From Capsulimonadaceae bacterium (lineage in GTDB: Bacteria; Armatimonadota; Armatimonadia; Armatimonadales; Capsulimonadaceae), in assembly GCA_036504535.1 (NCBI GenBank), contig DASXUY010000022.1:5650-69649 (forward strand): DNA of 64,000 bases, in the 5' to 3' direction. Under the pieces are notes generated by a model. That model did not search any database. It was not told the origin of the DNA and saw only the letters and a program-made list of their open reading frames with translations. Position numbers and translations under genes: made by a program. Shown here piece after piece: positions 33,041-45,966 of the stretch. The number at the start of each line of letters is the position of its first letter. Position 1 is the stretch's first letter.

Positions 33041-33209
33041 GCATTAGTACAACCAACAAATCCATCACTCTCACCCTCGCCAAACCCACTCCACACCCCG
33101 TCCCCCACCGCGAAGCGATCCAAAAAAGGCCCGCCCGGCCTGAGAGGGCTCCTACCATCTCTCCCCCTCACACGCAGGATTCACCATCAAAAACGAGTAA
33201 CATTCTCAC

Positions 33210-33929
33210 GTGGACGCAACCGTACTCCAACATTTTGCTCCGTTCACCCTATCGTCGGCCTGCTATGCCGCCGGATACAGCGTCGGGCTGGGCGCGTTCG
33301 CGTGGATGGCGCATCGGCGGCGGTTGTGGACGTCGGGGATGATCCGCCTGATGGCGGCGGGGCTGATCGGCGGCCTCGTTTTCGCCAATCTCGCCCAGCT
33401 TATCTTCGCTCACGAGCCTGGCAAGTCGGTCTTGGGGGCGCTAGCGGGTGGGTATCTCGTGGTCGCGATCTACAAACGCCGCCTCGGCATCCGACGCGCG
33501 ACTGGCGACCTCTTCGCTGTGGCGCTCTCGGCTGGGGAGGCTGTGGGGCGGTTTGGCTGCCTTTTCGGCGGCTGCTGCTACGGCCGCGCAACGGCTATGC
33601 CGTGGGCCATCGCGCAGCACGGAGCCATGCGCCACCCCACGCAGCTTTACCTTGCGGCGGCAAGCGCAGCTATTCTAGCGGTTCTGCTTGTGCTGGAGCG
33701 GCGACGCCCGCCGGAGAATACGCTGTTCTATGTGCAAGGTGTTCTCTATTGCACCGCCCGTTTTACCATCGAGTTCTTCCGTGACACCAGCACCCTCGCC
33801 CTGGGGCTGACGTCGGCGCAATGGGCCTGCATCGCTGGCGTCGCCTTCTTCGGCACGATGCTCGCTCGGCTGCGTCAAGTGGAGGCAGCGCGGGCAGGAG
33901 GGACTGCGTCGGAGGCGGCGACAGCATGA
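33210..33929 (+). CDS. lgt: Prolipoprotein diacylglyceryl transferase (Lgt) family.
   Basis: Polytopic membrane protein. GRFGCLFGGCCYGR...PWAI...RHPTQLYL matches the Lgt signature region (GRxGxFxNxE / HPTQLYE); this is a Cys-containing variant. GTG start. The TGA overlaps the ATG of the next gene. Confidence 0.65.
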   Translation: MDATVLQHFAPFTLSSACYAAGYSVGLGAFAWMAHRRRLWTSGMIRLMAAGLIGGLVFANLAQLIFAHEPGKSVLGALAGGYLVVAIYKRRLGIRRATGDLFAVALSAGEAVGRFGCLFGGCCYGRATAMPWAIAQHGAMRHPTQLYLAAASAAILAVLLVLERRRPPENTLFYVQGVLYCTARFTIEFFRDTSTLALGLTSAQWACIAGVAFFGTMLARLRQVEAARAGGTASEAATA

Positions 33930-34342
33930 TGCGATGTTCGAACTGCAATGCCGAGGTATTCAACAATAAGACTGTGTGCCCAAACTGCGGCAATAACGTT
34001 CCGACAGCCACACCAACGCCTTTTACCGACGACCTACCGGCAATTACGAACTCGCAACGCCTGCCAGATCGCGAGGCATATTTTGCGGGGGTGTGGTTAG
34101 CCATCTTCACTGTTATTCTCGCCAGTATCGTAACGATGGCAACAGGAGCGTGGCCGCTGTTCTTTGCTGGTCCGATATCAGCGTTACTGCTCTCCTTTCG
34201 CCAGCGGGCAAGTTCTCCAGATAATGCACGTGGATTGATCATGGGTCTTGTTTATTGCTTTGGCGGCGTCGCGACACTTTACCTGGGGGCACTTGCTTTG
34301 TGTAGAGTCGCCGCACTGTATCTGGTGATGCTCGCGCAATAA
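33926..34342 (+). CDS. Zinc-ribbon membrane protein, array member 1 of 14.
   Basis: MMRCSNCNAEVFNNKTVCPNCGNNV, then transmembrane helices, then ...DNARGLIMG... and a C-terminal LALC. The ATG overlaps the lgt stop (ATGA). Confidence 0.7.
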   Translation: MMRCSNCNAEVFNNKTVCPNCGNNVPTATPTPFTDDLPAITNSQRLPDREAYFAGVWLAIFTVILASIVTMATGAWPLFFAGPISALLLSFRQRASSPDNARGLIMGLVYCFGGVATLYLGALALCRVAALYLVMLAQ

Positions 34343-34365
34343 GGCGTTGCGGGAGTTCGGTGATC

Positions 34366-34926
34366 ATGGTTATCAAATGCCCTAACTGTGCGAGCAACAT
34401 TTCCGAGGATACAATCATCTGTCCGGAATGCGGCTACAAGCCCATGACGGATTTGTCGCTGGAAGTCAGTGGGGAATCACAGGAACCGATTGGTTGCGTG
34501 CAACCTGCCAAATGCCCAAACTGTGCCGCTAGCATACCAGAGGGTGCGATCCTGTGCCCGGAATGCGGCTACGATACCAAGACCATTTGGCCGCCGTCCC
34601 CAAGAGGTCGATTCGCCTCGCCAGCGGCGACAACTGGTGCCGAAAAGCGTGCTCGTGCAGGCGGCGTTGTGGTCTCGGTAGCGGTTCTCGTGCTTTTCGG
34701 CGTCGTTTCGTCACAGCTAGGCTACGGTCCGATTGTCTTTTTGGGCCCTTTAGCGGTGCTGGCGATATCATCATTAACAAGCGAGCACTACCCACAATTC
34801 GCTGTGGGGCTTCGTATCACTCTCAAGTTTGTACGTGGAGCGATAATCATCGTGGTCCTGGGCGCCCTCGGCGCGTTTTCAATATGCGTATGTTTTTGGC
34901 TGTTGGAGGCGCTATTTCATCGATGA
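34366..34926 (+). CDS. Zinc-ribbon membrane protein, array member 2 (duplicated zinc ribbon).
   Basis: MVIKCPNCASNISEDTIICPECGY followed by a second ribbon KCPNCAASIPEGAILCPECGY, then 2-3 transmembrane helices. GGGAG ribosome-binding site. Confidence 0.7.
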   Translation: MVIKCPNCASNISEDTIICPECGYKPMTDLSLEVSGESQEPIGCVQPAKCPNCAASIPEGAILCPECGYDTKTIWPPSPRGRFASPAATTGAEKRARAGGVVVSVAVLVLFGVVSSQLGYGPIVFLGPLAVLAISSLTSEHYPQFAVGLRITLKFVRGAIIIVVLGALGAFSICVCFWLLEALFHR

Positions 34927-35321
34927 CCGCCAAATGCCCACACTGTGCTGCCGACATACCGGGGCGCCCCACGCTGTGTCCGAACTGCGGTCACAAGATC
35001 ACGGCGGCGTGGACCCAGCGTTTAGGGCTTATGCCGCTCAATATGGACGCCGATCTGCGTCCCTTTTTTGCCGGAATTAGGGCGCCCATTTTACTTGTAG
35101 TTCTATTCACCTGGCTCGCGTTCCAGTTCAACGACTGGGAGCTAGGGTTTGGCGGCCCGGCGACAGCGCTCACAGCTGCTGCGGCGTTGTGGTGGAAGCA
35201 CCGTCAACTTTCGCGCGGCCTCGGCATGGGCATCATGTGGATATTGGCGACAATCGGCGTGATATTCCTCGGCGCTCTGGTGATCTGCGGCGTTGAGACG
35301 GCGATTGGGGCGAACAAGTGA
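34923..35321 (+). CDS. Zinc-ribbon membrane protein, array member 3.
   Basis: MTAKCPHCAADIPGRPTLCPNCGH, transmembrane helices, RQLSRGLGMG, C-terminal LVICGV. The ATG overlaps the previous stop (ATGA). Confidence 0.7.
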   Translation: MTAKCPHCAADIPGRPTLCPNCGHKITAAWTQRLGLMPLNMDADLRPFFAGIRAPILLVVLFTWLAFQFNDWELGFGGPATALTAAAALWWKHRQLSRGLGMGIMWILATIGVIFLGALVICGVETAIGANK

Positions 35322-35328
35322 GACGGCA

Positions 35329-35718
35329 ATGACAACCAAATGCCCTAACTGCGCTACTGGCATCTGCGGTGACGAAAAGATGTGCCCGAACTGTGGCAAG
35401 CTCGTGCTGATTCAAGCCGTTGGGTCGTCTGGCACGAGAAGCTCTCTCGGCGCAATCGGCTGCTTTCAAGCCTTTATTTTGGTGTTGATTGCTATGTTGG
35501 CGATTGATCGTATTGCCAACATAGCATGGGAGAGGAAGTCATTTCTCGTGTATGCCGTCGGCTCTCTTGCCGTTTTGGCAGCGATCGTCGCCGCAAAGGC
35601 ACGGTTGCCGCGCTTCGCAAGTAATGTCCTTGTTGTTGTGCTTGTCTTCACCTTGATCGTCGCGATGATGGGCTTGGGAGCATTCGTGGCCTGTTGGGGA
35701 CCGGGGAACGGCTTATGA
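35329..35718 (+). CDS. Zinc-ribbon membrane protein, array member 4.
   Basis: MTTKCPNCATGICGDEKMCPNCGK, transmembrane helices, KARLPRFASN, C-terminal FVACWG. Confidence 0.7.
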   Translation: MTTKCPNCATGICGDEKMCPNCGKLVLIQAVGSSGTRSSLGAIGCFQAFILVLIAMLAIDRIANIAWERKSFLVYAVGSLAVLAAIVAAKARLPRFASNVLVVVLVFTLIVAMMGLGAFVACWGPGNGL

Positions 35719-36116
35719 CCATCAAATGCCCAAACTGCGCTACTAGCATCTCCAATGACGTGGCCCTGTGTCCGGAATGCGGCTGCGAAATCGCGGTGGA
35801 TGCGTCGGCTGTCAAGAACGAGATGGCTACACCATCGGGGAAAAGTGTTCCGCCAATCTGGTACCGCACGCCAGCCGCGATTTACATCTGGATAGGTGGT
35901 TTAGGTATGGTGTTTATAATCGCTGCTCTTCAGCGGACATTGGCGTCATTCTTCTGTGGCCTGACCTTATACTTCGTGGTTGCTACGGTCGCGATCTGGA
36001 AGGCGCCCCGTAGTCCAAAACGGACCATAGACTTGGTCTTGTTACTGTTGTTGATGGCAACTCTGATTTGCCTAAGTGGTTTCTTTACTTGCTGTGCTGT
36101 GATTTCGAAGGACTGA
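35715..36116 (+). CDS. Zinc-ribbon membrane protein, array member 5.
   Basis: MTIKCPNCATSISNDVALCPECGC, three transmembrane helices, KAPRSPKR, C-terminal FFTCCAV. ATGA overlap with the previous gene. Confidence 0.7.
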   Translation: MTIKCPNCATSISNDVALCPECGCEIAVDASAVKNEMATPSGKSVPPIWYRTPAAIYIWIGGLGMVFIIAALQRTLASFFCGLTLYFVVATVAIWKAPRSPKRTIDLVLLLLLMATLICLSGFFTCCAVISKD

Positions 36117-36124
36117 GCGGCTCA

Positions 36125-36532
36125 ATGACAACCAAATGCGCGAACTGTGGCGAGCCGCTCTCTAGCGACGATAAGCTATGCCCGAACTGCGGGGCGGCAC
36201 TGGGCGAGATGTGGCCGCCGCCGCCCTCGTCTCGGGGCGACGAGCTTCCGGGCCCAGCTAGAAGCTTGCCACCGTGGCTTCAGTGCTTGATAGGCGTCTT
36301 TATTGTCTTCGCTCTTTCTACTGGACTGGCGTTGGTAGCGAGAGAAGCTAAGCTGTTCTCCGTTTATGCGGTCGGTGTTGGGCTTCTTCTACTGGTCGCG
36401 ATTATAGCCGTTCGAAACTCACCTGGATTCAAAAAGAACTCAGTGGCCGTAGCCGCTCTCTTCCTCGGTGGGTCGCTGGTCGTATTCTGGAATGGCTTAA
36501 TAACGTGCTACGGTATTTTTCGGCACAGATAA
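36125..36532 (+). CDS. Zinc-ribbon membrane protein, array member 6.
   Basis: MTTKCANCGEPLSSDDKLCPNCGA, transmembrane helices, RNSPGFKKN, C-terminal LITCYG. Confidence 0.7.
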   Translation: MTTKCANCGEPLSSDDKLCPNCGAALGEMWPPPPSSRGDELPGPARSLPPWLQCLIGVFIVFALSTGLALVAREAKLFSVYAVGVGLLLLVAIIAVRNSPGFKKNSVAVAALFLGGSLVVFWNGLITCYGIFRHR

Positions 36533-36537
36533 ACGCT

Positions 36538-36927
36538 ATGACCATCAAATGCCCAAACTGCGCTAGCGCCATTCCCGAGGACACGGCACTGTGTCCGGAA
36601 TGTGGCTACGAGCACGTCGCCGACTGGCCGCACGTTACGATGGGCGAAGCATATGGTCCGCTTGGCTGCCTTCAGACATTCTTGGTTGTGTTCGCAACGT
36701 TGCTCGCGATCGCAGGGGTCGGCTATATCGCGGCGGAGAAGAGCTCGCTCATCGTATATATCATCGGGGCGGCGTGCGTTGTGCTGGCAAGTGCCCTCGC
36801 AACCCGTCGGTTACCGCGAATAATGAAGAACACCCAGGCACTTCTGTTCGTGATCATTGTAATTGGGGTTATGACCTGGTTTGGCGCTTTCGTGACATGT
36901 TCTAGGTCGATGGGGCCCGTATGGTAA
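36538..36927 (+). CDS. Zinc-ribbon membrane protein, array member 7.
   Basis: MTIKCPNCASAIPEDTALCPECGY, transmembrane helices, RRLPRIMKN, C-terminal FVTCSR. Confidence 0.7.
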   Translation: MTIKCPNCASAIPEDTALCPECGYEHVADWPHVTMGEAYGPLGCLQTFLVVFATLLAIAGVGYIAAEKSSLIVYIIGAACVVLASALATRRLPRIMKNTQALLFVIIVIGVMTWFGAFVTCSRSMGPVW

Positions 36928-37322
36928 CCAAATGCCCAAACTGCGCCGCGACGCTTACTGGCGACGAAACCTTGTGCCCGAACTGCGGACACGAGATCGC
37001 TAGCGCATGGCCGCCCCCGCTCGCCGAAGAGCTGCCGGATATGCCCAAGTTCCCGCCGCAACGCGATACGCAGGCGTATAATGCTGGCGGCTTAGCATCA
37101 CTTGGTCTCGTGTTCCTATCGCTTTACCTTGCGTCGGTTACTGGAAAGTGGCTGGTCATCTGTGTGGGCCCAATCATCGCGTTCTTGTGTGCTGCGTACC
37201 AATGGAATAGATATCGCGACCTGGCACGCGGGCTGATCATGGGCGTCGTCATCTTTTACGGAGGCGTCGCGGTACTCTGGCTGGGACTGCTTGCTATTTG
37301 TAGCTGGGGTACATACCGATGA
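36921..37322 (+). CDS. Zinc-ribbon membrane protein, array member 8 (nearly identical to member 9).
   Basis: MVTKCPNCAATLTGDETLCPNCGH...NRYRDLARGLIMG...LAICSW. Overlaps the previous gene by 7 nt (ATGGTAA). Confidence 0.75.
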   Translation: MVTKCPNCAATLTGDETLCPNCGHEIASAWPPPLAEELPDMPKFPPQRDTQAYNAGGLASLGLVFLSLYLASVTGKWLVICVGPIIAFLCAAYQWNRYRDLARGLIMGVVIFYGGVAVLWLGLLAICSWGTYR

Positions 37323-37723
37323 CACCCAACTGCCCAAACTGTACCGCGAAGCTTATCGGCGACCAAACCCTGTGCCCGAACTGCGGACACGAGATCGCTA
37401 GCGCATGGCCGCCCCCGCTTGCCGAAGAGCTGCCGGATATGCCCAAGTTCCCGCCGCAACGCGATACGCAGGCGTATAATGCTGGCGGCTTAGCATCACT
37501 CGGTCTCGTGTTCCTATCGCTTTACCTTGCGTCGGTTTCCGGAAAGTGGCCGGTAATTCTGGTTGGCCCCATCATCTCATTCTTGTGTGCCGCGCACCAA
37601 TGGAATAGATATCGTGATCTCGCACGCGGCCTGATCATGGGCGTCGTCCTCTTTTACGGCGGCGTCGCGGTACTCTGGCTTGGACTCCTTGTTATTTGTA
37701 GTAATATGGCAGGATACCGATGA
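37319..37723 (+). CDS. Zinc-ribbon membrane protein, array member 9 (recent tandem duplicate of member 8).
   Basis: MTPNCPNCTAKLIGDQTLCPNCGH. About 90% identical to member 8 at nucleotide and protein level. ATGA overlap. Confidence 0.75.
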   Translation: MTPNCPNCTAKLIGDQTLCPNCGHEIASAWPPPLAEELPDMPKFPPQRDTQAYNAGGLASLGLVFLSLYLASVSGKWPVILVGPIISFLCAAHQWNRYRDLARGLIMGVVLFYGGVAVLWLGLLVICSNMAGYR

Positions 37724-38136
37724 CACCCACATGCCCAAACTGCTCTGCGACGCTTACCGGTGCCGAGACCCTGTGTCCGGAATGCGGGTTCTCGCTACTG
37801 GGTGTCTGGCCGCCGCCGCCCGACACAGTACCGGCACCAGCGCCGAAGCGCACATGGCGCGAACGGCGTCCGTATATTCTCGGCAACGTGGCCGGCATCG
37901 CGATCATTCTAGGGTCCATATTCCTCACCGGTTTTATCGATGCTTGGTGGCTATTCCTCGTGGGAATTGGACTCTCTGGGATCATCGGTCGGTTAATTCA
38001 ACCTCGCGCACCTGAATTCGGGCGGGGTATGTCCATCAGCCCGCTATACTTTGTCCTCATCGTCGCCGTTCTGATCCTCGGCGCACTCGCCACCTGCTTC
38101 GTGGGCCTGCTGTTTAGCCGCGCTCATTCGCCGTAA
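37720..38136 (+). CDS. Zinc-ribbon membrane protein, array member 10.
   Basis: MTPTCPNCSATLTGAETLCPECGF...RAPEFGRGMSISP...LATCFV. ATGA overlap. Confidence 0.7.
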   Translation: MTPTCPNCSATLTGAETLCPECGFSLLGVWPPPPDTVPAPAPKRTWRERRPYILGNVAGIAIILGSIFLTGFIDAWWLFLVGIGLSGIIGRLIQPRAPEFGRGMSISPLYFVLIVAVLILGALATCFVGLLFSRAHSP

Positions 38137-38152
38137 ATGAAACAGAGTCGCC

Positions 38153-38542
38153 ATGCCCAACGTATGCAAAAACTGTGGAGCCGAGCAAACCGGAACGTCA
38201 ACGGTCTGCCTGAACTGCGGAGTGAGTGTTGCGCCGCTGACGCCGCAAGTCCAGACCTTGATGATAGGCAGGCGTCGCGACCCGTATTTAGGGTTCATAC
38301 TCTCTGTATTGGGCCCGCTTGGCGTGGCGGCGATATGCCTGAGCTTTTGGCCGTCGTATACTATTTTTGCGTGGATCGTATCTATCATCGGGACGCATGG
38401 GATTGGCGATGCCATAAAAGAGAAGTGGCCCCTTTTCGGCGGTGCCCTAAAGCGGGGCATCGAATTACAGTTCACAGTACTGGTCGTACTTGTCCTTGGA
38501 GGCTTGGCCATTTGCGCCGGAGCAGCGCGTCAAGGTGCTTGA
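38153..38542 (+). CDS. Zinc-ribbon membrane protein, array member 11.
   Basis: MPNVCKNCGAEQTGTSTVCLNCGV, then transmembrane helices, C-terminal LAICAG. Confidence 0.65.
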   Translation: MPNVCKNCGAEQTGTSTVCLNCGVSVAPLTPQVQTLMIGRRRDPYLGFILSVLGPLGVAAICLSFWPSYTIFAWIVSIIGTHGIGDAIKEKWPLFGGALKRGIELQFTVLVVLVLGGLAICAGAARQGA

Positions 38543-38599
38543 ACGTCCGAAGCACAATCTGTGTGCTATTCGTTTGGGCGGTAGGGAGCGTAAAGTGCT

Positions 38600-38962
38600 A
38601 TGACCTACATATGCAAAAACTGCGACTCCGAGCTAACCGAAACGTCGAACGTCTGCCCAAACTGCGGCGAGCCCGTCGCGCGGAAGCCGACGTGGCACGA
38701 GCGGCGTTTGTATATTGGCGGCATCATTACGGGACTCGTTATAATAATTGGGACAATATTTATCACGTCTACGCTTACCTCTACGCGGGCATTTATAGTC
38801 CCCGCTGCAATGGCGGCGTTTGTTGGAGTGGCCATTCTAAGCACCTCGTTTCAGTTTCGGTCCCCGGAATTCGGGCGCGGCCTTCGAATCAGCCCTGCGT
38901 ATTTTTTCGTTGTTGTAGCGGTAATGCTTCTTGGTCTATTCGTCGTATGCCTCGCTGAATGA
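38600..38962 (+). CDS. Zinc-ribbon membrane protein, array member 12.
   Basis: MTYICKNCDSELTETSNVCPNCGE...RSPEFGRGLRISP...FVVCLAE. Confidence 0.7.
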   Translation: MTYICKNCDSELTETSNVCPNCGEPVARKPTWHERRLYIGGIITGLVIIIGTIFITSTLTSTRAFIVPAAMAAFVGVAILSTSFQFRSPEFGRGLRISPAYFFVVVAVMLLGLFVVCLAE

Positions 38963-38983
38963 TGAACCGAAACCGATTTACCG

Positions 38984-39415
38984 ATGACATACACCTGCAA
39001 AAACTGTGGAGATGAGCTAACCGAAACATCGATCGTCTGCCCGAACTGCGGCGAGCGTGTCGTCACGCACTGGCCCCCGTTCATCATGCAGGATGACGCG
39101 CCCGAGCCCGAGACCGAGCCCCAGCCAAAGCCGCTCATTCGGCGCGGCGACAAAGCGGTGGGCTTCGCCTTGTCGTGCATCCCAGCGCCGGTTACGATCC
39201 TCGTGGAGCGCCTGCTTCCGAACGTCGGCGCGACGGCAGCGCTTCTTGGCTATGGACTTGTGATTGTTGCAGCGAGCAGTATTCAGTATCGCAGACCAGA
39301 CGTTTTCGCGGGCATGGTGCGCGGACTCAAACTACAGCTACTCGTAGCAGCATTGCTCATGCTGGGGTCAATATATACTTGCTTTACTACCGGCCCTTAT
39401 AGCCAACGCCAATAA
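38984..39415 (+). CDS. Zinc-ribbon membrane protein, array member 13.
   Basis: MTYTCKNCGDELTETSIVCPNCGE...RRPDVFAGMVRGLKLQ...IYTCFT. Confidence 0.7.
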   Translation: MTYTCKNCGDELTETSIVCPNCGERVVTHWPPFIMQDDAPEPETEPQPKPLIRRGDKAVGFALSCIPAPVTILVERLLPNVGATAALLGYGLVIVAASSIQYRRPDVFAGMVRGLKLQLLVAALLMLGSIYTCFTTGPYSQRQ

Positions 39416-39491
39416 TCTTTACGTTTGTTCGAGTGCTACCGGGGTTGGCTAAGGGAGTCGCATACCTTTGCGGCCCGCAAGAACGAAAACA

Positions 39492-39869
39492 ATGAACACT
39501 ACGTGCAAGAATTGCAATAAGCCGATCAGTGACGACGACATCAAATGTCCATCCTGTGGCCATGTGCCCCCCGAGCCGTGCACCAAGGGCCAGTCACCGG
39601 GGATGGCCCTTGGAATGATAGGCGGGATAGGGGCCACACTTGTGTTGGCATTCATGGGTAGCATTTTAATCTATTGTGGCTTGTTCATAGCGGTCCCGGT
39701 TTGGCTTGGTTGTCTTTTTGCACTCGACTCACACGCGGTTAAGGTTTCCGCACGGACGCCAGGGTTTGCGCGAGGGTTGCGGCTAGGAATCCGTCTGCAA
39801 ATTCTCGGATTTATGGTGTTGATTATCGAAACCACCATCAAGCTTCACAACTGGTATGGAGTGCAATGA
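39492..39869 (+). CDS. Zinc-ribbon membrane protein, array member 14.
   Basis: MNTTCKNCNKPISDDDIKCPSCGH...RTPGFARGLRLG. An alternative upstream start exists at 39468. Confidence 0.65.
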   Translation: MNTTCKNCNKPISDDDIKCPSCGHVPPEPCTKGQSPGMALGMIGGIGATLVLAFMGSILIYCGLFIAVPVWLGCLFALDSHAVKVSARTPGFARGLRLGIRLQILGFMVLIIETTIKLHNWYGVQ

Positions 39870-39913
39870 AAATCACCCGATGCTCCCTGCTCGCCAACCC
39901 ATCGCCCCGCCTC

Positions 39914-39989
39914 CTAGCGGCGAAGCCGTTCAAGGGTGCAGCGTCACGCTGCCGCCAGCCGCGTAGGCTACCCCTGCGGCGAGCAGTCC
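39914..39989. repeat. Dispersed ~70-bp structured repeat, copy 2.
   Basis: ctagcggcgaagccgttcaagggtGCAGCGtcacGCTGCcgccagccgcgtaggctacccctgcggcgagcagtcc. Confidence 0.6.
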
Positions 39990-40034
39990 TAAACCGTTAC
40001 CTTACAACCGACACCATACCCTGAACACCAAACC

Positions 40035-41441
40035 ATGACCCAACCCGCCGCGATCACCGATCCCTGGACCGAAGACACCGCCAGCCTGTGCCCGACATGC
40101 CTTGCGCACGTCCCGGCGCGCATTGCGGTCGACGGCGGCGGAGTCTGGATCACGAAGCGCTGCCCCGCGCACGGCGAATCCAGCGCGCTGCTGGCTAGCG
40201 ACGCCACCGAGTACTTGCGCCTGCGCCAGTTTGTCCCGGACCGCAGCGGAGCGAACTGCTGCTGCGGACCCGGCGACTCGTGCACCGGCGCGCCTCCCGT
40301 GTGTGTCCTGCTGCTGGAGATCACGCAAGCCTGTAACCTGCGCTGCCCAACATGCTACGCCGACGCGCACGGGCACGAGTTTATGACCGTCGACGAAGCT
40401 CGGCGGCGACTCGATTCGTTCTTCGTAAAGCAGCCAGTGCTCGATGTGCTCATGATCAGCGGCGGCGAGCCCACCATCCACCCCCAGTTTCGCGAGATCC
40501 TCGACCTCGCGCTGTCGTACCCGATCAACCGTGTGCTCATCAACACCAACGGCCTCCGCCTTGTCCAGAGCGACACTGTGCTCGATGCCATCGCCGCGCA
40601 CCGAAACCGCGTCGAGCTGTTCCTGTCGTTCGCCAGCTTCCGCGCCGACGTCCACGAGCGGCTCTACGGCCGTGACCTGCGAACCGAAAAGACCGCCGCC
40701 GTCGATCGAGCGCGTGACGCCGGACTCTTCACGACCATCGTGCCGACAATCGAACGCGGCGTCAACGACGACGAGATCGGCGACCTTTACCGGTTCGCCC
40801 TGTCCCGCGACAACATCAACGGCATCAACTTCCAGCCCGTCATGAGCGCGGGGCGCTACGATCACGGATACGATCCCGCCGGGCGCATGACCCTCACCGA
40901 CGTGATCGCCGCCCTTGAGTCGCAAACCAACGGCCACCTCATCCGCACCGATTTCGTCGGCCTGCCGTGCTCGCATCCCGACTGCTGCGCACTCACATAC
41001 GGCTTTCTCGACGCTGCCCGCACCCGAATCGCTCCGCTCCCGCGATCGCTCGACGTTGCCCGGTACATGGACCTGTTCACGGACCGCATCAGCTTCTCGG
41101 GTCTCGTCGGCGGGGCGTTGCGACGCGTCTGGAGCGACATGGCGCATATGCGAGCAGCGCAAACCCTGCGCGACCTCGGGACCCTCTTCGCCACCGCTGG
41201 CATACGCGACGTGCTCCCACTTATCGGTCGCCCGGAAGAGTTTGGCAAACGTGTCCTGCGTATCGTCGTCAAGCCGTTTATGGACGCGCACACGTACGAC
41301 CAGCATCGTGTTGAGCAGTGCTGCACGAAGATCATCGACGAGACGGGTCAGCCCGTCTCGTTCTGCGAATACAACGTTCTGCGCCGCGGGGTAACGCTCC
41401 CGGCGCGCCGTGGCTCCGTGCCGTTGTCGGTCGTCGGGTAG
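40035..41441 (+). CDS. Radical SAM enzyme with an N-terminal Cys/His-rich (zinc-ribbon/rubredoxin-like) extension and a C-terminal Cys cluster.
   Basis: CNLRCPTCY (CxxxCxxC) plus the GGEPTIHPQF SAM-binding motif. N-terminal LCPTC...(22)...CPAHG and CCCGPGDSC. C-terminal CSHPDCC and QCCTKIIDETGQPVSFC. Confidence 0.8.
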   Translation: MTQPAAITDPWTEDTASLCPTCLAHVPARIAVDGGGVWITKRCPAHGESSALLASDATEYLRLRQFVPDRSGANCCCGPGDSCTGAPPVCVLLLEITQACNLRCPTCYADAHGHEFMTVDEARRRLDSFFVKQPVLDVLMISGGEPTIHPQFREILDLALSYPINRVLINTNGLRLVQSDTVLDAIAAHRNRVELFLSFASFRADVHERLYGRDLRTEKTAAVDRARDAGLFTTIVPTIERGVNDDEIGDLYRFALSRDNINGINFQPVMSAGRYDHGYDPAGRMTLTDVIAALESQTNGHLIRTDFVGLPCSHPDCCALTYGFLDAARTRIAPLPRSLDVARYMDLFTDRISFSGLVGGALRRVWSDMAHMRAAQTLRDLGTLFATAGIRDVLPLIGRPEEFGKRVLRIVVKPFMDAHTYDQHRVEQCCTKIIDETGQPVSFCEYNVLRRGVTLPARRGSVPLSVVG

Positions 41442-41623
41442 GGGATTTAGGACGGCTCGTGCCGCCGGGGCATCTTTTATATAAGGGTGGCGGTGCGGTA
41501 AACCCGCTATCCCAGCCCACTCGACTTTCCAGCACACCGACAAGCATAGTCAGATAGAGGGAGCGAAGCGAGAAAAAATGCCCAAGCGGCACGAGCGATC
41601 CTAATATTATAAGTGGGGGAGAT

Positions 41624-41905
41624 ATGAGCGAATTCGATAGACAAGAACAGGGTCGACGGTATGAGGGGTGGGCGTTTACGTACTGCAAAGCGGCGCTGCT
41701 GGTGCTTATCTTCCAGCGTTACTCGCTCATCGCCCTATCAGCGCTCTCGGTGATCTTCTACCTCGCCGCCGCCGCGAAGGGCGTTGACAAGTACCGCTGC
41801 TTCGTCAAGCCGCCCTGGGTCACCATCGCCTGGACCATCGTCCTCATCGCCCAGCTTTACGCCATCCACATCCACGGTTGGCCCCCATGGCGGCTGATCG
41901 GGTAG
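41624..41905 (+). CDS. Small (93 aa) two-transmembrane-helix membrane protein of unknown function.
   Basis: GGGGGAG ribosome-binding site before the ATG. Two hydrophobic helices (AALLVLIFQRYSLIALSALSVIFYLAAAA; VTIAWTIVLIAQLYAI). Confidence 0.4.
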   Translation: MSEFDRQEQGRRYEGWAFTYCKAALLVLIFQRYSLIALSALSVIFYLAAAAKGVDKYRCFVKPPWVTIAWTIVLIAQLYAIHIHGWPPWRLIG

Positions 41906-42003
41906 AGGGGTAGACTTGATCCTCTCCGCCCCACCTCCCGCCAAGCCGCAGAGCCTCATCAACACCCCAAGCATTGGGGTGCGAGCCAAGCGAGCGGGGT
42001 CCC

Positions 42004-42624
42004 TCACACACACAGCCGCGCCGCTTCTTCGGCTTCGTTCAGCTTGCCGGCGGCGATCAGCGAACGTATCTCGTGCGTCTCCATGATGCGGTTCACCCAC
42101 GCTTTGCGGCGCGCAATCCCCTCCATGCCTTGGATCGTGTTGCGAAGCCGCCCAAACAGCTGTATCCAGAGGTCGTATTCGGGACCGTACTGCTTCTCCA
42201 CCCGGTCGCGCAGCACGGACGCGAACGTTGGGCTTTCACCACCCGTCGAGATTGACAAGAGCAGCTTCCCGCGCGCAACCGTGCTGGGGGTGATGAACGA
42301 GCCCTCAGTCGGCGCATCGGCGCGGCAGACAAGCGCGCCCGCAGCCTCGGCGGCCCTGGCAACAGCCTCGTTCACCGTCTGCGAGTTGGTCGCCGCGTGC
42401 ACCAGAAACGCGCCCGCGACATCGCTCTCAGCAAACTCGCGGCGTATAATCTCGCATGCCCGCGAACGCGCCAGGTCCTCGATCTGCGCCGTGACACTGG
42501 GAGCAACAACACGCACCGTTGCTCCCTGGCCGTGCAATGACTCCACACGCCTCGTCGCTACCGATCCGCCGCCGACCACCACCACGAGCCGACCGGTCAA
42601 ATTCAATATCACTGGGTATGGCAT
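42004..42624 (-). CDS. sirC: Precorrin-2 dehydrogenase / sirohydrochlorin ferrochelatase (SirC/CysG N-terminal domain type).
   Basis: MPYPVILNLTGRLVVVVGGGSVATRRVESLHGQGATVRVVAP Rossmann motif typical of the siroheme synthase N-terminal domain. About 200 aa. Confidence 0.75.
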   Translation of the reverse strand: MPYPVILNLTGRLVVVVGGGSVATRRVESLHGQGATVRVVAPSVTAQIEDLARSRACEIIRREFAESDVAGAFLVHAATNSQTVNEAVARAAEAAGALVCRADAPTEGSFITPSTVARGKLLLSISTGGESPTFASVLRDRVEKQYGPEYDLWIQLFGRLRNTIQGMEGIARRKAWVNRIMETHEIRSLIAAGKLNEAEEAARLCV

Positions 42625-42687
42625 ATCTTTATTATAAGCTTCTTGCTCTTACAATCAGCACTAAAACGCTAATAGGGTATCGCAACA

Positions 42688-42765
42688 CTCGCGGCGAAGC
42701 CGCATAACGGTCCAGCGGACTCGCTGGCTCCCGCCGAGTAGGCGGCCCCAGCGGCGAGCGTTCCT
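42688..42765. repeat. Dispersed ~70-bp structured repeat, copy 3.
   Basis: ctcgcggcgaagccgcataacggtCCAGCGgactCGCTGGctcccgccgagtaggcggccccagcggcgagcgttcc. Confidence 0.6.
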
Positions 42766-42780
42766 ACTCCCTCATTCTAC

Positions 42781-42826
42781 GGAAACAAACAGCCCCTCGT
42801 TTCACACAACGTGCAATTCGAGGGGC
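42781..42826 (-). terminator. Rho-independent terminator for pntB (minus strand).
   Basis: On the minus strand: GCCCCTCG-(19-nt loop)-CGAGGGGC followed by TGTTTGTTT. It lies 28 nt after the pntB stop. Confidence 0.5.
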
Positions 42827-42853
42827 CGTTAACCAACATTCACAACCCAGCCG

Positions 42854-44299
42854 CTACATCTCTTTCACGGCGCGGGCGAGTTTGTCGACCGAGTCCTTGG
42901 CGTCGCCAAAGAGCATGACCGTCTTCTCGTTTTCGTACAGCGGGTTCGCGATACCGGCGAATCCGGAGCGCATGGAGCGCTTCAGGACGACGATATTCTG
43001 AGCCTTGTCCACGTCGAGAATAGGCATGCCGTAGATTGGGCTGCTGGCGTCGTTGCGCGCCGCCGGGTTGGTGACGTCGTTCGCGCCGATGACCAGGGCG
43101 ACATCCGTGCGAGCGAACTCGGGGTTGATGTCTTCCATGTCGAACAGCGCGGGATACGGCACATCCGCTTCGGCGAGGAGGACGTTCATGTGCCCGGGCA
43201 TTCGTCCGGCGACCGGGTGAATGGCGTACTTGACGACAACATCCTTGGCTTCGAGCTGATCGGCCAGCTCTTTGACCGCATGCTGCGCCTGAGCGACTGC
43301 CATGCCGTAGCCGGGGACGATGATCACCTGACTGGCGTACGCCAGCATGGTCGCGACATCGTCAGCTGATGCGCTCCGGACATTCATGTCAGCCGCGGGA
43401 CCGGCAGCAGCGGTCGTGTCGACAGCGCCGAATGCGCCGAAGAGGACGTTGCTGATCGGCCGGTTCATCGCCTTGCCCATTTCGACGGTGAGCAGAGTAC
43501 CGGATGCGCCGACGAATGCGCCGGCGACCACGAGGGCGTTATTCCCCAGTGCAAAGCCGCCCGCCGCCACCGCGATACCGGTGAATGCGTTCAGCAGTGA
43601 GATCACAACGGGCATATCCGCGCCGCCGATTGGGAGCACGAACAGGACACCGAGGAACAACGACACAATCGCAGCGACTGTGAACGCTACTTCGGGGTTA
43701 ATGACGCCAAGGAACGACGCGATCATGACGCCGATGACAGCAACAAAGCCGCCAATGTTCATGATATTTGCGCCTGGCCACGTGATAGGTCGGCCCGAGA
43801 TCAGTTCTTGGAGCTTCCCGAAGGCAATCAGCGAACCGGTGAAGCTAAGGCAGCCGATGATCACGCTTAGGAAGATAGACGCGACCGCATCGGGCGGGAG
43901 CTTTGTGGCGTTATGCAGACCAGCTTCTTGAAGCGCGAGGTGCAGGTCGTAGACCGCAACCAACGCCGCCGTCGCGCCTCCAGCACCGTTGAAGATCGCC
44001 ACCATTTGTGGCATCGCGGTCATCTTCACCCGCAGCGCGGAAATGGCGCCGATGCCGCCTCCGAGGAGCAGACCGACAACAATGATGCCAGTTTGGCAGG
44101 GGCTGTAGTTGACAAGCTTGGCGCCCATGGCATCGGTGCCGATGAACACGCCAATTACGGTGATCAGCATGCCAACCATGGCGATACGGTTACCGAGCTT
44201 GGCAGTCGCTGGCGCGTTCATGTACTTAAGCGCCAGGTAGAACAGAAACGCCGTGACAAGATAGGCGATTTCGATAGGTGAAACAGTCGTGGTAGGCAT
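42854..44299 (-). CDS. pntB: NAD(P) transhydrogenase subunit beta.
   Basis: N-terminal polytopic membrane domain and a C-terminal NADP(H)-binding domain (IIVPGYGMAVAQAQH...AIHPVAGRMPGHMNVLLAEA). Confidence 0.9.
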   Translation of the reverse strand: MPTTTVSPIEIAYLVTAFLFYLALKYMNAPATAKLGNRIAMVGMLITVIGVFIGTDAMGAKLVNYSPCQTGIIVVGLLLGGGIGAISALRVKMTAMPQMVAIFNGAGGATAALVAVYDLHLALQEAGLHNATKLPPDAVASIFLSVIIGCLSFTGSLIAFGKLQELISGRPITWPGANIMNIGGFVAVIGVMIASFLGVINPEVAFTVAAIVSLFLGVLFVLPIGGADMPVVISLLNAFTGIAVAAGGFALGNNALVVAGAFVGASGTLLTVEMGKAMNRPISNVLFGAFGAVDTTAAAGPAADMNVRSASADDVATMLAYASQVIIVPGYGMAVAQAQHAVKELADQLEAKDVVVKYAIHPVAGRMPGHMNVLLAEADVPYPALFDMEDINPEFARTDVALVIGANDVTNPAARNDASSPIYGMPILDVDKAQNIVVLKRSMRSGFAGIANPLYENEKTVMLFGDAKDSVDKLARAVKEM

Positions 44300-44614
44300 T
44301 TAATTTTTGCCTCCCGTTGTCGGTTTCTTCTTCTTGAACATCTGGAGCATTCTTTCGGTAACGACGAAGCCGCCGAACACATTGACTGCGCCAAGCGTGA
44401 CCGCAGCAAACGAGCCGATGTATCCTAGTCCGTTGTTCGGGAACAGCGCCGAGCCCGTCGCGATTATAGCGCCGACGACAACGATCCCGTGGATCGCATT
44501 GGTTGCCGACATAAGCGGTGTGTGAAGGGTGGTAGGAACGTGGGAAACCACTTCCAGACCGATCAGAATCGCGAACATCAAGACCGCGACATGGGTGAAC
44601 ATTTCCGGAGTCAT
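44300..44614 (-). CDS. pntAB: NAD(P) transhydrogenase subunit alpha, part 2 (membrane).
   Basis: A ~100-aa, three-helix membrane protein (HVAVLMFAILIGLEVVSHVP...NAIHGIVVVGAIIATG) between pntAA and pntB. Confidence 0.85.
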   Translation of the reverse strand: MTPEMFTHVAVLMFAILIGLEVVSHVPTTLHTPLMSATNAIHGIVVVGAIIATGSALFPNNGLGYIGSFAAVTLGAVNVFGGFVVTERMLQMFKKKKPTTGGKN

Positions 44615-45762
44615 TTTCCTTCTCCTTCCGGTAAGCCGAGCGCGGCACGAGTCACTTTGTGCAGAACCTCGCCGTCATGGGTCAGCGTCGAACTCGCGAT
44701 GATCTCATCCTTGAAGTCAAGATTGAGCGCCCCTTCTTTGTTGACGATCAGCGCCAAAAGGCTCGTGATGTTTCGCGAGTAGAGCTGACTGGCGTGGAAA
44801 GGAACCGTTGCAGGCAAGTTGAGCGTGCCGTCAATGGTGACCCCGTGAACGGACACAACTTCGCCCTTCACCGTGAGCTCGCAGTTGCCGCCGGTTTCAG
44901 CTGCCATGTCGATAATCACCGATCCAGGCTTCATCGCCTTGACCGCGTCGGCAATCACCATTAGTGGAGCGGGGCGTCCCGGGACGAGCGCGGTGGTGAT
45001 GACTATGTCAGACGCTGCGACATACGGGATCATCATCTCACGCTGCTTCTGCGCCTCTTCGGGAGTCAGTGCGCGAGCATAACCGCCCGCCGCTTCCCCG
45101 TCGCCAGTGACATTGATCTCAATGAACTCAGCCCCAAGGCTGTGAACCTGCTCTTTGACCACCGCCCGGACATCGAACGCCGACACGACGGCACCAAGAC
45201 GCCGCGCTGTTGCGATAGCCTGAAGGCCCGCAACACCCACACCAAGGATGAGCACCTTGGCTGGCGGGATAGTGCCAGCCGCCGTTGTCATCATCGGCAG
45301 GATCTTCGGCAAGTGGTTCGCCGCGATTAGCACCGACTTATAACCTGCGAGGTTGCTCTGCGATGACAGGACGTCCATCGACTGAGCGCGCGTGATTCGA
45401 GGAACCATTTCCATGCTGATAGCCGTCAGCTTGTGGTCCGCGAGCGACTTCACATAGTCCGGGTGGCCGAGAGGTGAGAGTAGTCCGACAACAATTGCGC
45501 CGCTGGGAATAGCGGCGAGTTCATCGGCATCGGGGCGAGCTACTTTGACGACAATGTCAGCGCCCTTGTAAAGTGAAGCAGTATCCGGGGCGATTTCGGC
45601 TCCGGCAGCCGCGTACGCTTCATCGAGAAATCCGGCGCTGACGCCCGCTCCTGATTGGACACGAACAGTCAGGCCGCTTTTTATGAGTCGGGTAATACCA
45701 TCGGGAATAAGCGCGACTCGGCGCTCTCCGGTATTCCGCTCCTGCGGCACGGCGACGATCAT
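44611..45762 (-). CDS. pntAA: NAD(P) transhydrogenase subunit alpha, part 1 (alanine-dehydrogenase-like NAD(H)-binding).
   Basis: MIVAVPQERNTGERRVALIPDGITRLIKSGLTVRVQSGAG...; ATG at 45760-45762 with a GGAGG ribosome-binding site 7 nt upstream. The longer ORF reaching 45828 is rejected. Confidence 0.88.
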   Translation of the reverse strand: MIVAVPQERNTGERRVALIPDGITRLIKSGLTVRVQSGAGVSAGFLDEAYAAAGAEIAPDTASLYKGADIVVKVARPDADELAAIPSGAIVVGLLSPLGHPDYVKSLADHKLTAISMEMVPRITRAQSMDVLSSQSNLAGYKSVLIAANHLPKILPMMTTAAGTIPPAKVLILGVGVAGLQAIATARRLGAVVSAFDVRAVVKEQVHSLGAEFIEINVTGDGEAAGGYARALTPEEAQKQREMMIPYVAASDIVITTALVPGRPAPLMVIADAVKAMKPGSVIIDMAAETGGNCELTVKGEVVSVHGVTIDGTLNLPATVPFHASQLYSRNITSLLALIVNKEGALNLDFKDEIIASSTLTHDGEVLHKVTRAALGLPEGEGK

Positions 45763-45966
45763 AGTGAAACCTCCGTGCAATCTTCGCCAGTCAGTGGATT
45801 CGGGGGAATTGACCGCCCGGTGAAACATGGCGATTTGTTAGATAATTCTACTAGCGTGGCGGCCAGACAGTCATCCGCCTTATGGCCGTTCTTACGCTAT
45901 TATTTGGACATATGACCCACTTTGTGACTATTTTCACGATTTCCCTGCGTTAACGCTGGGTATACT

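Follow-up and report, generated by a model that had tools for sequence, protein, structure and literature searches.

The 64,000-nucleotide window analysed here, from a Capsulimonadaceae bacterium, carries a run of genes on the forward strand that begins with a gene of the LGT family, continues with a tandem array of 14 genes for small zinc-ribbon membrane proteins (hereafter Z), and ends with a radical SAM gene (hereafter rSAM) and a gene for a small membrane protein (hereafter D). The first-pass annotation had placed a radical SAM enzyme with Cys/His-rich extensions directly downstream of an array, and it was right on both counts (Table 1). The rSAM gene is real, since the very same protein has been recorded from a Capsulimonadaceae MAG and over 120 clusters are related to it at 64-82% identity. 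An antisense open reading frame of 513 aa that overlaps it (40002-41543, minus strand) is a high-GC artefact and not a gene.

Table 1 Genes and protein regions of the LGT-like, Z, rSAM and D locus, in positions of the window.
Feature	Position	Strand	Description
LGT-like gene	33210..33929	+	239 aa; Lgt fold by sequence; signature motif GRFGCLFGGCCYG; Leu in place of H103
Z array	33926..39869	+	14 tandem genes directly upstream of rSAM, LGT-like gene in front
Z genes 1-5, likely coordinates	33926-34342, 34360-34926, 34923-35321, 35329-35718, 35715-36116	+	Open reading frames with likely starts
Z genes 6-10, likely coordinates	36125-36532, 36538-36927, 36921-37322, 37319-37723, 37720-38136	+	Open reading frames with likely starts
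Z genes 11-14, likely coordinates	38153-38542, 38600-38962, 38984-39415, 39492-39869	+	Open reading frames with likely starts
Radical SAM gene (rSAM)	40035..41441	+	468 aa, ATG start; Tes/GDGT-MAS (MJ0619) fold
rSAM, rubredoxin-like zinc-ribbon domain	40071..40196	+	aa 13-54; C19-X2-C22-X20-C43-X2-H46; PF23545 61.7 bits
rSAM, N-terminal auxiliary-cluster loop	40257..40304	+	aa 75-90; C(75)-C76-C77-x5-C83-x6-C90
rSAM, radical SAM core	40317..40799	+	aa 95-255; C100-x3-C104-x2-C107 and G143-G-E-P; PF04055 75.2 bits
rSAM, C-terminal auxiliary-cluster / lipid-pocket domain	40968..41366	+	aa 312-444; C312, H314, C317, C318, C429, C430, C444
D gene	41624..41905	+	93 aa small membrane protein, motif EGWAFTFCKAAFLVL...LSGLA..FY...W.CWAKPP.VT.FW

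The rSAM protein belongs to the Radical SAM superfamily, for which the Pfam cut-off of 29.5 bits is well exceeded (E = 9e-21), and likewise to the Zn_ribbon_HMPTM family of the MJ0619/Tes superfamily, which is matched at residues 13-54 against a cut-off of 27 bits (E = 5e-17). All of the motifs originally quoted for the protein are present, namely C19-P-T-C22, C43-P-A-H46-G and C75-C-C-G-P-G-D-S-C83 in the N-terminal part, CNLRCPTC (C100, C104, C107) and G143-G-E-P in the core, and C312-S-H-P-D-C317-C318, Q-C429-C430-T-K and F-C444 towards the C-terminus, and these clusters are kept in hundreds of orthologues. In an alignment of 60 sequences C19, C22, C43, H46, C100, C104, C107 and G143-G144-E145 are invariant and C83, C90, C312, C317, C429, C430 and C444 are at least 90% conserved, against a mean column identity of 34%, and the clusters are therefore not chance cysteines.

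The overall architecture of rSAM closely follows that of Tes/GDGT-MAS. The AF2 model of the protein (pLDDT 88.3, pTM 0.89) superimposes in Foldseek on 7TOL/7TOM at a TM of 0.77-0.78 over ~491 columns, other radical SAM enzymes reaching ~0.37 or below; 7TOL is the sole full-length structural match (TM 0.77) and is also matched by the rSAM sequence at E = 9e-49. As modelled, rSAM has the four-domain fold of Tes/GDGT-MAS, composed of rubredoxin, N-cluster, radical SAM core and C-cluster domains, with low confidence at the N-terminal auxiliary-cluster loop (aa 75-90), as is expected of a cofactor-binding loop. First, the rubredoxin-like site that had been suspected in the N-terminal extension is clearly conserved, with the Fe ligands C9X2C12X20C33X2H36 of Tes corresponding at identical spacing to C19X2C22X20C43X2H46 of rSAM. 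Next, the CX3CX2C and GGE motifs are common to both enzymes. Finally, the C-terminal domain aligns to residues 353-499 of the Tes chain, where C317, C429, C430 and C444 of rSAM match Tes cysteines, C312 and C318 are two extra conserved cysteines, and the helical region that matches the Tes lipid pocket is kept. The initial likening to the MJ0619/Tes group thus names the right superfamily, the N-terminal Pfam domain of which is itself named after MJ0619, but it does not extend to orthology with Tes.

Despite the common fold, rSAM is only ~25% identical to Tes and represents a separate, tightly conserved bacterial clade that is orthologous neither to Tes nor to TrsS. The Tes model NF045702 matches rSAM in two stretches with 194.9 bits against an equivalog cut-off of 450, and the best NCBIfam match, TrsS (NF045646), covers residues 14-449 end to end at 229.3 bits against a cut-off of 490; neighbouring subfamilies of rSAM also reach only 254-265 bits with the TrsS model. 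The N-cluster ligands differ as well, as C73-X3-C77-X2-C80-X2-His of the Tes [4Fe-4S]N is replaced by CC-x5-C-x6-C (C76-C77-x5-C83-x6-C90), a motif that is conserved across the rSAM clade and specific to it, and at the Tes site only one cysteine of the clade aligns, with no histidine at the Tes position. Furthermore, Tes Met439 and Tyr459 are Lys413 and Ile433, respectively, in every member of the clade. Met439 is a labile ligand of the [4Fe-4S]C in Tes, and both residues are fully conserved in 1,000 archaeal homologues according to the Tes structure paper; with these Tes-invariant residues absent, Tes-type chemistry is not guaranteed for rSAM. The clade has one full-length 50%-identity representative, and its next relatives are at most 47% identical. 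The Tes-type N-cluster ligand motif is found in other bacterial relatives of rSAM.

The LGT-like protein matches the Pfam LGT model (PF01790) with 96.1 bits against a cut-off of 24.9, and reaches 49.8 bits with the TIGR00544 lgt model, for which the cut-off is 118.9. When aligned to E. coli Lgt (5AZB; residue numbers are those of E. coli), the family keeps R143, G154, HPxQLY, R239, E243 and R246, two of which, R143 and R239, are DAG-binding residues in Lgt (PMC4728403). From the Pfam membership and the two arginines the protein is assigned the Lgt fold, and its diacylglyceryl-binding pocket is probably retained, given the conservation of all these residues. In contrast, the essential residues of the housekeeping enzyme are replaced: H103 by leucine and N146 and E151 by cysteine, invariantly, with a further cysteine at L152 (GC...GCC), so that the Lgt signature G142-RLGNFINGELW-G154, which is accompanied by H103 in the HGGL motif, reads G-RFGCLFGGCCY-G. 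H103, N146 and E151 are all essential in E. coli Lgt, where substitutions of H103 as well as E151A/Q abolish activity (PMC4728403). The LGT-like proteins are also shorter than Lgt, at 225-239 aa. Judged by the TIGR00544 score, the signature and position 103, the protein is not a housekeeping Lgt.

The Z genes are spaced at -7 to +76 nt, with several ATGA overlaps, and encode polytopic proteins of 115-190 aa that consist of a CPxC...CPxCG zinc ribbon, a WPPPP linker and ~3 TM helices, with an R.xYPxFARGLGxG loop and, ahead of a short tail, a terminal L-G-x-x-x-x-C motif. Mean column identity within the family is 27%, and beyond the zinc ribbon (C5, C8, C19, C22, G23, P20) the only columns conserved at 90% or above are G121 and the terminal cysteine, C126; the L-G-x-x-x-x-C motif is present in ~46 of the 56 members, and the last copy in the window (39492-39869) is without the terminal cysteine. 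In the AF2 model (pLDDT 87; helices 46-73, 77-93 and 98-135) the three-helix arrangement puts this cysteine opposite the zinc ribbon, on the side of the Lgt active site. The surrounding segment is organised like the signal peptide of a lipoprotein, with a basic loop, a hydrophobic helix and L-A-x-C, and has at -1 a bulky residue that is unlike the canonical lipobox. The terminal cysteine is a candidate lipid acceptor, located near the C-terminus of a polytopic protein, whereas the acceptor cysteine of Lgt substrates follows an N-terminal signal peptide. Z copy number varies from 1 to 14 across loci, with 1-3 copies at the same position in other genomes, a variation that fits substrates better than subunits. 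Searching 5.8 billion proteins with a profile of the Z family returned mostly generic zinc ribbons (14-30% query coverage) and no annotation, and no PDB structure resembles the Z model (best E > 5). The D protein is strongly conserved and has two invariant cysteines; it has no Pfam or NCBIfam match and, in the loci examined, was not found outside Armatimonadota.

The LGT-like protein, Z, rSAM and D constitute a conserved four-component membrane module. The order in Armatimonadota is LGT-like, Z (1-3 copies; 14 here), rSAM and D (~90 aa), with the LGT-like and Z genes upstream of rSAM in 21 of 24 informative loci and D downstream in 29 of 32. In three loci (L014, L023 and L025) for which 2.5 kb or more of upstream sequence is available, rSAM has no LGT/Z ahead of it, and the same holds for a fourth with only ~2 kb (L021). 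The flanks outside the cassette are unconserved, the best case being metK in 6 of 35 loci. In the cultured Capsulimonas corticalis the cassette genes overlap as ATGA, including D with the rSAM stop codon, an arrangement from which the genes are taken to be translationally coupled. Outside Armatimonadota, in other lineages and phyla, the LGT domain is either fused to rSAM or encoded downstream of it. Single polypeptides of LGT::Zn_ribbon_HMPTM::Radical_SAM composition are found in three cases (P0127, P0166 and L037), and the fusions fall into two lineages that are 33-36% identical to each other; a metagenome-contig scan with one of them (P0127) gave only 4 loci, all unfused. In another locus the order is permuted to Z-like, Z-like, rSAM, LGT (L063), and Z-like proteins accompany both fused and permuted systems (L037, L005 and L063). 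The C-terminus of Lgt is cytoplasmic, as derived from the Lgt structure paper (PMC4728403), and the fusions therefore place the Fe-S enzyme in the cytoplasm. The genetic tie or fusion to a radical SAM enzyme distinguishes the LGT-like protein from Lgt, just as the Lgt-fold partner distinguishes the bacterial rSAM of Armatimonadota from the archaeal Tes, which needs no membrane partner. A lipid- or protein-modifying role, at first suggested by the lgt gene and the array nearby, is strongly reinforced by this synteny and by the natural fusions. In the literature we found no earlier description of the cassette, no paper that connects Lgt-like proteins to Tes or to radical SAM enzymes and none mentioning PF23545.

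On balance, the cassette most likely functions as a lipid or lipid-protein modifying machine with rSAM as its cytoplasmic catalytic subunit, a view that we hold with moderate confidence and from which the following reaction may be inferred. The rSAM protein would contain four metallocentres, one Fe in the rubredoxin-like site and three [4Fe-4S] clusters, of which one is N-terminal, one cleaves SAM and one is C-terminal, and would be partnered by an Lgt-fold integral membrane protein in which phospholipid-recognition and catalytic residues are replaced by cysteines. The central cavity of the LGT-like protein would bind a glycerolipid in the way that phosphatidylglycerol is bound by Lgt, and the protein would probably also transfer lipid to the conserved cysteine at the outer end of the last Z helix. 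Held at the cytoplasmic face, rSAM would generate 5'-deoxyadenosyl radicals. These would remove hydrogen from an unactivated carbon in the lipid chain, and a new C-C or C-S bond would form, assisted as in Tes by the C-terminal cluster; Tes itself joins the termini of lipid tails in a C(sp3)-C(sp3) coupling that proceeds by way of a cluster-sulfur adduct. The product would be either a modified lipid, for example a cross-linked or membrane-spanning one, or a lipid-protein conjugate. A direct reaction of rSAM with the Z cysteine would be topologically awkward, since rSAM is cytoplasmic and the cysteine is predicted to lie at the outer leaflet. In the literature searched, neither membrane-spanning or unusual lipids nor lipidated Z proteins are recorded for Armatimonadota. 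A more elaborate and much more tentative proposal is that of a new lipidation machinery, in which the cysteine-substituted Lgt-fold enzyme would lipidate the non-lipobox cysteine of Z and the Tes-type rSAM would then cross-link the inert tails by C-C or C-S bonds into a macrocyclic or membrane-spanning anchor. If true, this would be the first case of C(sp3) coupling of the Tes type in bacteria and the first member of the Lgt family with a different acceptor and donor, and would make one source of bacterial membrane-spanning lipids genetically accessible.

The tandem small genes could instead suggest that rSAM is a RiPP-type peptide or protein maturase, with the multi-copy Z as precursors that receive a cross-link such as a thioether without any lipid. 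Multiple small genes directly upstream of the enzyme, 14 of them here, are typical of RiPP clusters, Z has a conserved cysteine and a variable C-terminal tail, and there are weak NCBIfam and structural matches to SkfB, AlbA, SuiB and CteB. These matches are, however, confined to the barrel common to radical SAM enzymes: with the RiPP-maturase models rSAM reaches 27-45 bits where 250-850 are required, the matched region is limited to residues ~88-315 and the structural TM is ~0.37, and the resemblance to such maturases proposed in the first-pass annotation does not reach further than that. The SPASM/twitch maturases (AlbA, SkfB, SuiB, CteB and PqqE) were rejected as counterparts, no SPASM/twitch or RRE/PqqD domain being matched in rSAM by Pfam. 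Furthermore, the Z proteins are polytopic membrane proteins rather than short peptides, their cysteine is predicted to be across the membrane from the enzyme, and the LGT fusions would be left unexplained, all of which makes a RiPP role unlikely.

Similarly unlikely, and marginally more so, is that rSAM is a plain bacterial tetraether synthase, orthologous to Tes and acting alone to join lipid tails into membrane-spanning, brGDGT-like lipids, beside a housekeeping lgt that shares its operon by chance. The Tes fold does extend over the full length of rSAM, bacterial Tes homologues have been hypothesised in the literature to make brGDGT-type lipids, and a co-occurrence study cited in the literature points to Armatimonadota and Planctomycetota, the very phyla in which LGT-linked systems occur, as potential sources of overly branched GDGTs. 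Against this stand the low score with the Tes model, the substitution of Met439 and Tyr459 by lysine and isoleucine and the loss of the [4Fe-4S]N ligand motif, as well as the fact that in three proteins the partner without the essential Lgt residues is fused to the enzyme and that Z and D travel together with rSAM. The known producers of iso-diabolic acid are also, according to the literature, mostly without Tes homologues. A radical SAM enzyme that has been proposed to couple bacterial lipid tails, Mss of Thermotoga/Thermoanaerobacter, is described as only remotely related to Tes and, unlike rSAM, is without the HMPTM zinc ribbon context and has no reported LGT partner.

Other bacterial subfamilies of the Zn-ribbon rSAM superfamily have a MerA-like reductase and a CobW::DVU_1556-type methyltransferase as neighbours, and with members in such metal(loid) and methyltransferase contexts the superfamily is not restricted to lipids. 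Conceivably rSAM might likewise act on a metal(loid) or a sulfur/selenium small molecule, as is suspected for relatives of the TrsS type, with the cysteines of the LGT-like protein, Z and D serving as a thiol relay or metal site. TrsS is the best NCBIfam match over the full length and has the same layout of an N-terminal zinc ribbon and a radical SAM domain, polar positions of the Lgt signature are occupied by cysteine, two cysteines are invariant in D, and in one locus (L005) a rhodanese-domain membrane protein follows the fusion gene. Nevertheless, the TrsS score is far under the cut-off, the Armatimonadota cassette has no ArsM, MerA or CobW genes, and the Lgt fold is a lipid-binding one, with its DAG-binding arginines kept in the LGT-like protein, so we regard this as quite improbable. 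TrsS is moreover a radical SAM (seleno)protein, whereas rSAM here has no selenocysteine, and our literature search on TrsS yielded the family name only and no function. That rSAM is a class D radical SAM C-methyltransferase (7,8-dihydro-6-hydroxymethylpterin dimethyltransferase), as the JGI name of several orthologues has it and as the Pfam name HMPTM echoes, is scarcely credible, given that the authors of the Tes structure could not confirm MJ0619 as a methylase and re-assigned it as GDGT-MAS, and that methanopterin is a methanogen cofactor and the cassette is without pterin genes.

Several other identities were rejected. A confident match to a housekeeping family of the HemW or RlmN type, which the first reading had itself regarded as evidence against it, was not found among the best 25 of the 52 NCBIfam matches, from which both families are absent; AhbD gives 28.4 bits against a cut-off of 500. 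A role in anti-phage defence was likewise dismissed, as PADLOC gave only partial matches to the viperin core (pVip, 46 bits, core residues 94-226).

The locus brings together two well-studied types of lipid-handling enzyme that have not been connected before, as one well-conserved bacterial branch of the Tes family is coupled, physically as well as genetically, to an Lgt-fold protein whose active site has been rebuilt, and also to small membrane proteins of two cysteine-bearing families. As of 2025-2026 the literature contains no bacterial Tes homologue with a demonstrated function, and the role of these homologues bears on the biological sources of the branched GDGT palaeoclimate proxies. If the module indeed lipidates Z or cross-links lipid tails, it would broaden the chemistry of Lgt-family enzymes and also extend the range of C-C coupling of the Tes type. 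The natural fusion proteins offer material for biochemistry, and Capsulimonas corticalis is a cultured aerobic host with a compact, coupled four-gene operon, which makes these hypotheses directly testable.

Little regulatory structure was apparent around the genes. An Rfam scan of positions 30000-43000 gave no match, and a promoter scan found sites no more numerous than in shuffled sequence. Terminator-like hairpins are commoner than in shuffles (19 versus 10.5 +/- 3.0), all of them short and weak, and in the same scan none marks an obvious operon boundary; one such hairpin is located just past the rSAM stop codon, at 41459-41473.

All the Cys/His motifs that the first-pass annotation assigned to the radical SAM protein of the window (rSAM) are present in an ORF of exactly the proposed extent and, judged by an alignment of 60 sequences with a mean column identity of 34%, they are conserved features, with chance excluded. 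Cys19, Cys22, Cys43, His46, Cys100, Cys104, Cys107 and Gly143-Gly144-Glu145 are invariant, and Cys83, Cys90, Cys312, Cys317, Cys429, Cys430 and Cys444 are at least 90% conserved. A Capsulimonadaceae (Armatimonadota) MAG has a protein identical to rSAM on record, and over 120 protein clusters show 64-82% identity to it. The antisense ORF covering the entire gene is an artefact of high GC; the synteny analysis likewise grouped reading frames antisense to rSAM and LGT from different loci into clusters.

Coordinates of the window features (nt) and residues of the rSAM motifs
Feature	Window position	Strand	Length, motif or residues
Housekeeping surroundings	27538-29696	-	
ORF preceding SPFH/Band 7 gene	30108-30893		261 aa
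SPFH/Band 7 (flotillin-like) protein	30959-32977	+	672 aa
LGT-like gene (Lgt fold)	33210-33929	+	
Array of Z genes (small zinc-ribbon membrane proteins)	33926-39869		14 copies
Z copy, two zinc ribbons	34360-34926		
Adjacent Z copies	36921-37322, 37319-37723		
Last Z copy	39492-39869		
Antisense ORF	40002-41543	-	513 aa
rSAM ORF	40035-41441	+	468 aa
rSAM zinc-ribbon motifs			CPTC and CPAHG: C19, C22, C43, H46
rSAM N-terminal cluster motif			CCCGPGDSC: C75-C83
rSAM radical SAM motifs			CNLRCPTC: C100, C104, C107; GGEP: 143-146
rSAM C-terminal motifs			CSHPDCC: C312, C317, C318; QCCTK...FC: C429, C430, C444
D gene	41624-41905	+	
Housekeeping surroundings	42004-42624	-	
Housekeeping surroundings	42854-45828	-	
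Housekeeping surroundings	45967-46950	+	

The closest structural kin of rSAM is the archaeal tetraether lipid synthase Tes (GDGT-MAS, MJ0619; 7TOL, E = 9e-49), its sole solved full-length relative. In Pfam, rSAM matches Zn_ribbon_HMPTM (62 bits), a domain carrying the name of MJ0619, followed by Radical_SAM (75 bits). A confident AlphaFold model built from the orthologue alignment (pLDDT 88.3, pTM 0.89) is matched full-length in Foldseek by 7TOL/7TOM alone (TM 0.77-0.78, E ~1e-35), while SkfB, SuiB, CteB, viperins, MoaA, NifB and PFL-AE share only the common barrel (TM ~0.37); PADLOC found no defence system on rSAM, only partial viperin-core matches. The solved Tes has four domains and four metallocentres: a rubredoxin-like Fe (C9X2C12X20C33X2H36), [4Fe-4S]N (C73, C77, C80 and His), the RS cluster and the catalytic [4Fe-4S]C with the labile ligand Met439. 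The Tes-only full-length match, the identical rubredoxin spacing in rSAM (C19X2C22X20C43X2H46) and the alignment of its four C-terminal cysteines to Tes cysteines bear out the earlier guess that the extensions hold MJ0619/Tes-type rubredoxin-like and auxiliary Fe-S sites.

Judged by its sequence, however, rSAM is not Tes. Met439 and Tyr459 are reported to be invariant among 1,000 archaeal Tes homologues, whereas Lys413 and Ile433 replace them in every member of the rSAM clade, which also has CC-x5-C-x6-C in place of the [4Fe-4S]N motif CX3CX2CX2H and two extra conserved cysteines in the C-domain. The Tes-type N-cluster motif persists in several other bacterial relatives. Against the curated NCBIfam models rSAM scores 229 bits on the radical SAM family TrsS (cut-off 490) and 195 bits on Tes (cut-off 450), and its clade is isolated: when 1.84 billion representatives were searched exhaustively, a single full-length 50%-identity representative came back at 64% and the next at 47% or less.

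Loci were mapped for orthologues from long contigs and 51 named genomes, the profiles being made from genes of the window itself. In Armatimonadota the cassette runs on one strand from an LGT-family gene through 1-3 Z genes and rSAM to D, a ~90-aa membrane protein. LGT-like and Z lie upstream of rSAM in 21 of the 24 loci whose upstream sequence spans at least 2.5 kb, and D is present in 29 of the 32 with downstream sequence; LGT/Z are absent at L014, L023 and L025, each with at least 2.5 kb upstream, and likewise at L021 within ~2 kb. Z is present as one copy in nine loci, two in six, three in five and 14 in the window only. In Capsulimonas corticalis, a cultured type strain (AP025739.1), ATGA overlaps occur at all three junctions of the four genes; in the window the LGT-like gene overlaps the first Z gene in the same manner, the Z array is tightly packed (gaps of -7 to +76 nt) and rSAM is flanked by gaps of 165 and 182 nt. 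Beyond the cassette no gene is conserved, metK (6/35 loci) being the commonest and sole recurrent neighbour, and the linkage is therefore specific to the cassette and not an inherited neighbourhood. The metK gene (S-adenosylmethionine synthetase) lies a few kb from the cassette in L001, L002, L004, L010 and others.

LGT-like matches Pfam LGT with 96 bits but reaches only 49.8 bits on the Lgt equivalog model (cut-off 118.9). Aligned to E. coli Lgt, it keeps R143, G154, HPxQLY, R239, E243 and R246, whereas H103 is invariably Leu and, since its signature motif reads G-R(W/F)GC...GCC(Y/F)-G, the N146 and E151 positions are Cys. In the E. coli enzyme the diacylglyceryl pocket is made by R143 and R239, activity is lost with E151A/Q and with every H103 substitution, and the active site faces the periplasmic side (PMC4728403). 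From its structure, E243/R246 and the L6-7 loop are periplasmic, so TM7, the final helix, terminates on the cytoplasmic side, and LGT::rSAM fusions therefore put the Fe-S enzyme where it is required. Z has a zinc ribbon in the cytoplasm, a linker rich in Pro and about three helices, together with a basic YPxFARGLGxG loop and the terminal motif L-G-x-x-x-x-C with 1-15 residues after it; columns at least 90% conserved are confined to the ribbon (four invariant Cys, G23, P20), G121 and the terminal C126. The predicted model (pLDDT 87; helices 46-73, 77-93 and 98-135) puts this cysteine in the outer half of helix 3. The basic loop, hydrophobic helix and L-A-x-C read as the layout of a lipoprotein signal peptide, although the -1 residue is bulky and not G/A/S. 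Z has no PDB fold match (best E > 5) and no annotated homologues in a profile search of 5.8 billion proteins. D, in which two Cys are invariant, shows very strong conservation and matches no Pfam or NCBIfam family.

Outside Armatimonadota, LGT, Zn_ribbon_HMPTM and Radical_SAM are joined in one polypeptide in P0127 (671 aa), in P0166 (733 aa) and in the L037 protein, from Pirellulaceae. P0127 and the L037 protein are 61% identical, P0166 only 33-36% to either, and the P0166 subfamily keeps the Tes-type N-cluster motif and lacks the C-cluster cysteines. In L037 and L005 the genes before the fusions encode Z-like membrane proteins that have a zinc ribbon and, close to where the last helix ends, a Cys; these Z-like genes come after one for a conserved membrane protein of ~215 aa. 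L063 has a permuted order of two Z-like genes, rSAM and LGT, its rSAM being 41% (HMMER matched stretches) or ~33% (BLASTP) identical to that of the window. The 32-38%-identity relatives in Planctomycetota, Gemmatimonadota and Myxococcota (L039-L057) have no LGT, Z or D at their loci and form a separate subfamily, scoring 254-265 bits on TrsS, below cut-off; consistently downstream are genes for a FAD oxidoreductase resembling MerA and for a CobW-type GTPase in fusion with a DVU_1556-family methyltransferase, a setting that looks organometal(loid)-related and seems unexplored. The rSAM superfamily is thus functionally heterogeneous, with the LGT link limited to certain branches. Further members (P0235, P0245, P0265) are C-terminally fused to DUF5714 or a class I SAM methyltransferase domain, which adds to the evidence that the Zn_ribbon_HMPTM rSAM family has diversified in function.

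It is established that rSAM is a Tes-fold enzyme with the full set of metal sites, partnered with an Lgt-fold protein that keeps the lipid-pocket arginines and has changed donor-selection and catalytic residues. The module's inferred role is to modify either a glycerolipid or a conjugate of lipid and protein. LGT-like would bind the lipid and probably S-alkylate the Z cysteine, as this is the only chemistry known for the Lgt fold, at the position where Lgt acts; rSAM would abstract hydrogen from a lipid carbon that is not activated and make a bond, C-C or C-S, via its C-terminal cluster, as in Tes. The variation of Z from 1 to 14 copies is easier to reconcile with a substrate than with a stoichiometric subunit. 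The weak points are the loss of the Tes Met439 and Tyr459, the predicted location of rSAM and the Z cysteine on opposite membrane sides, and the four loci without LGT/Z linkage.

The TrsS-like relatives and, in L005, a neighbour with a rhodanese domain suggest metal(loid) or sulfur chemistry, but genes of this sort are absent from the cassette; TrsS itself is a selenoprotein family by name only, with no function assigned in the literature. The L005 neighbour (4686-6065), directly 3′ of the fusion, has a rhodanese domain and a polytopic membrane half with a conserved C..C..C motif, and a homologue of that half lies 5′ of the fusion in L006 (30-806). A stand-alone Tes orthologue beside a housekeeping lgt is contradicted by the LGT::rSAM fusions and by the Tes hallmarks that rSAM fails. 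A RiPP-type maturase acting on Z is unlikely, with SPASM and RRE domains missing from rSAM and LGT left unexplained. Pterin methylase is a legacy annotation: the JGI name "7,8-dihydro-6-hydroxymethylpterin dimethyltransferase" on several orthologues (e.g. P0071, P0102, P0111) comes down from the original assignment of MJ0619, one that the Tes structure paper failed to corroborate, and has likely spread as a misannotation.

The literature treats bacterial Tes homologues as uncharacterised, and no mention of an Lgt-like partner was found in the literature searched; we rate rSAM as a Tes-family enzyme inside a new multi-component, Lgt-linked system. The system makes the role of bacterial Tes homologues testable in a cultured organism.

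Just 5′ of the LGT-like gene in the window lies an SPFH/Band 7 gene (PF01145, 77.6 bits), not conserved beside the cassette in other genomes, preceded by an ORF that matches no family. An Rfam scan of 30000-43000 gave no match. Among the housekeeping surroundings are glutamyl-tRNA reductase HemA, a cytochrome c assembly protein, a protein with a siroheme synthase N-terminal domain (TIGR01470, 139 bits) and, as called by eye, a YgfZ-like folate-binding protein and transhydrogenase subunits of the pntB/pntA type. The 14 Z copies are divergent and in tandem, against 1-3 in all other genomes examined; one has two zinc ribbons, the last has lost the terminal Cys, and the ~85% identity of two adjacent copies suggests a recent duplication.
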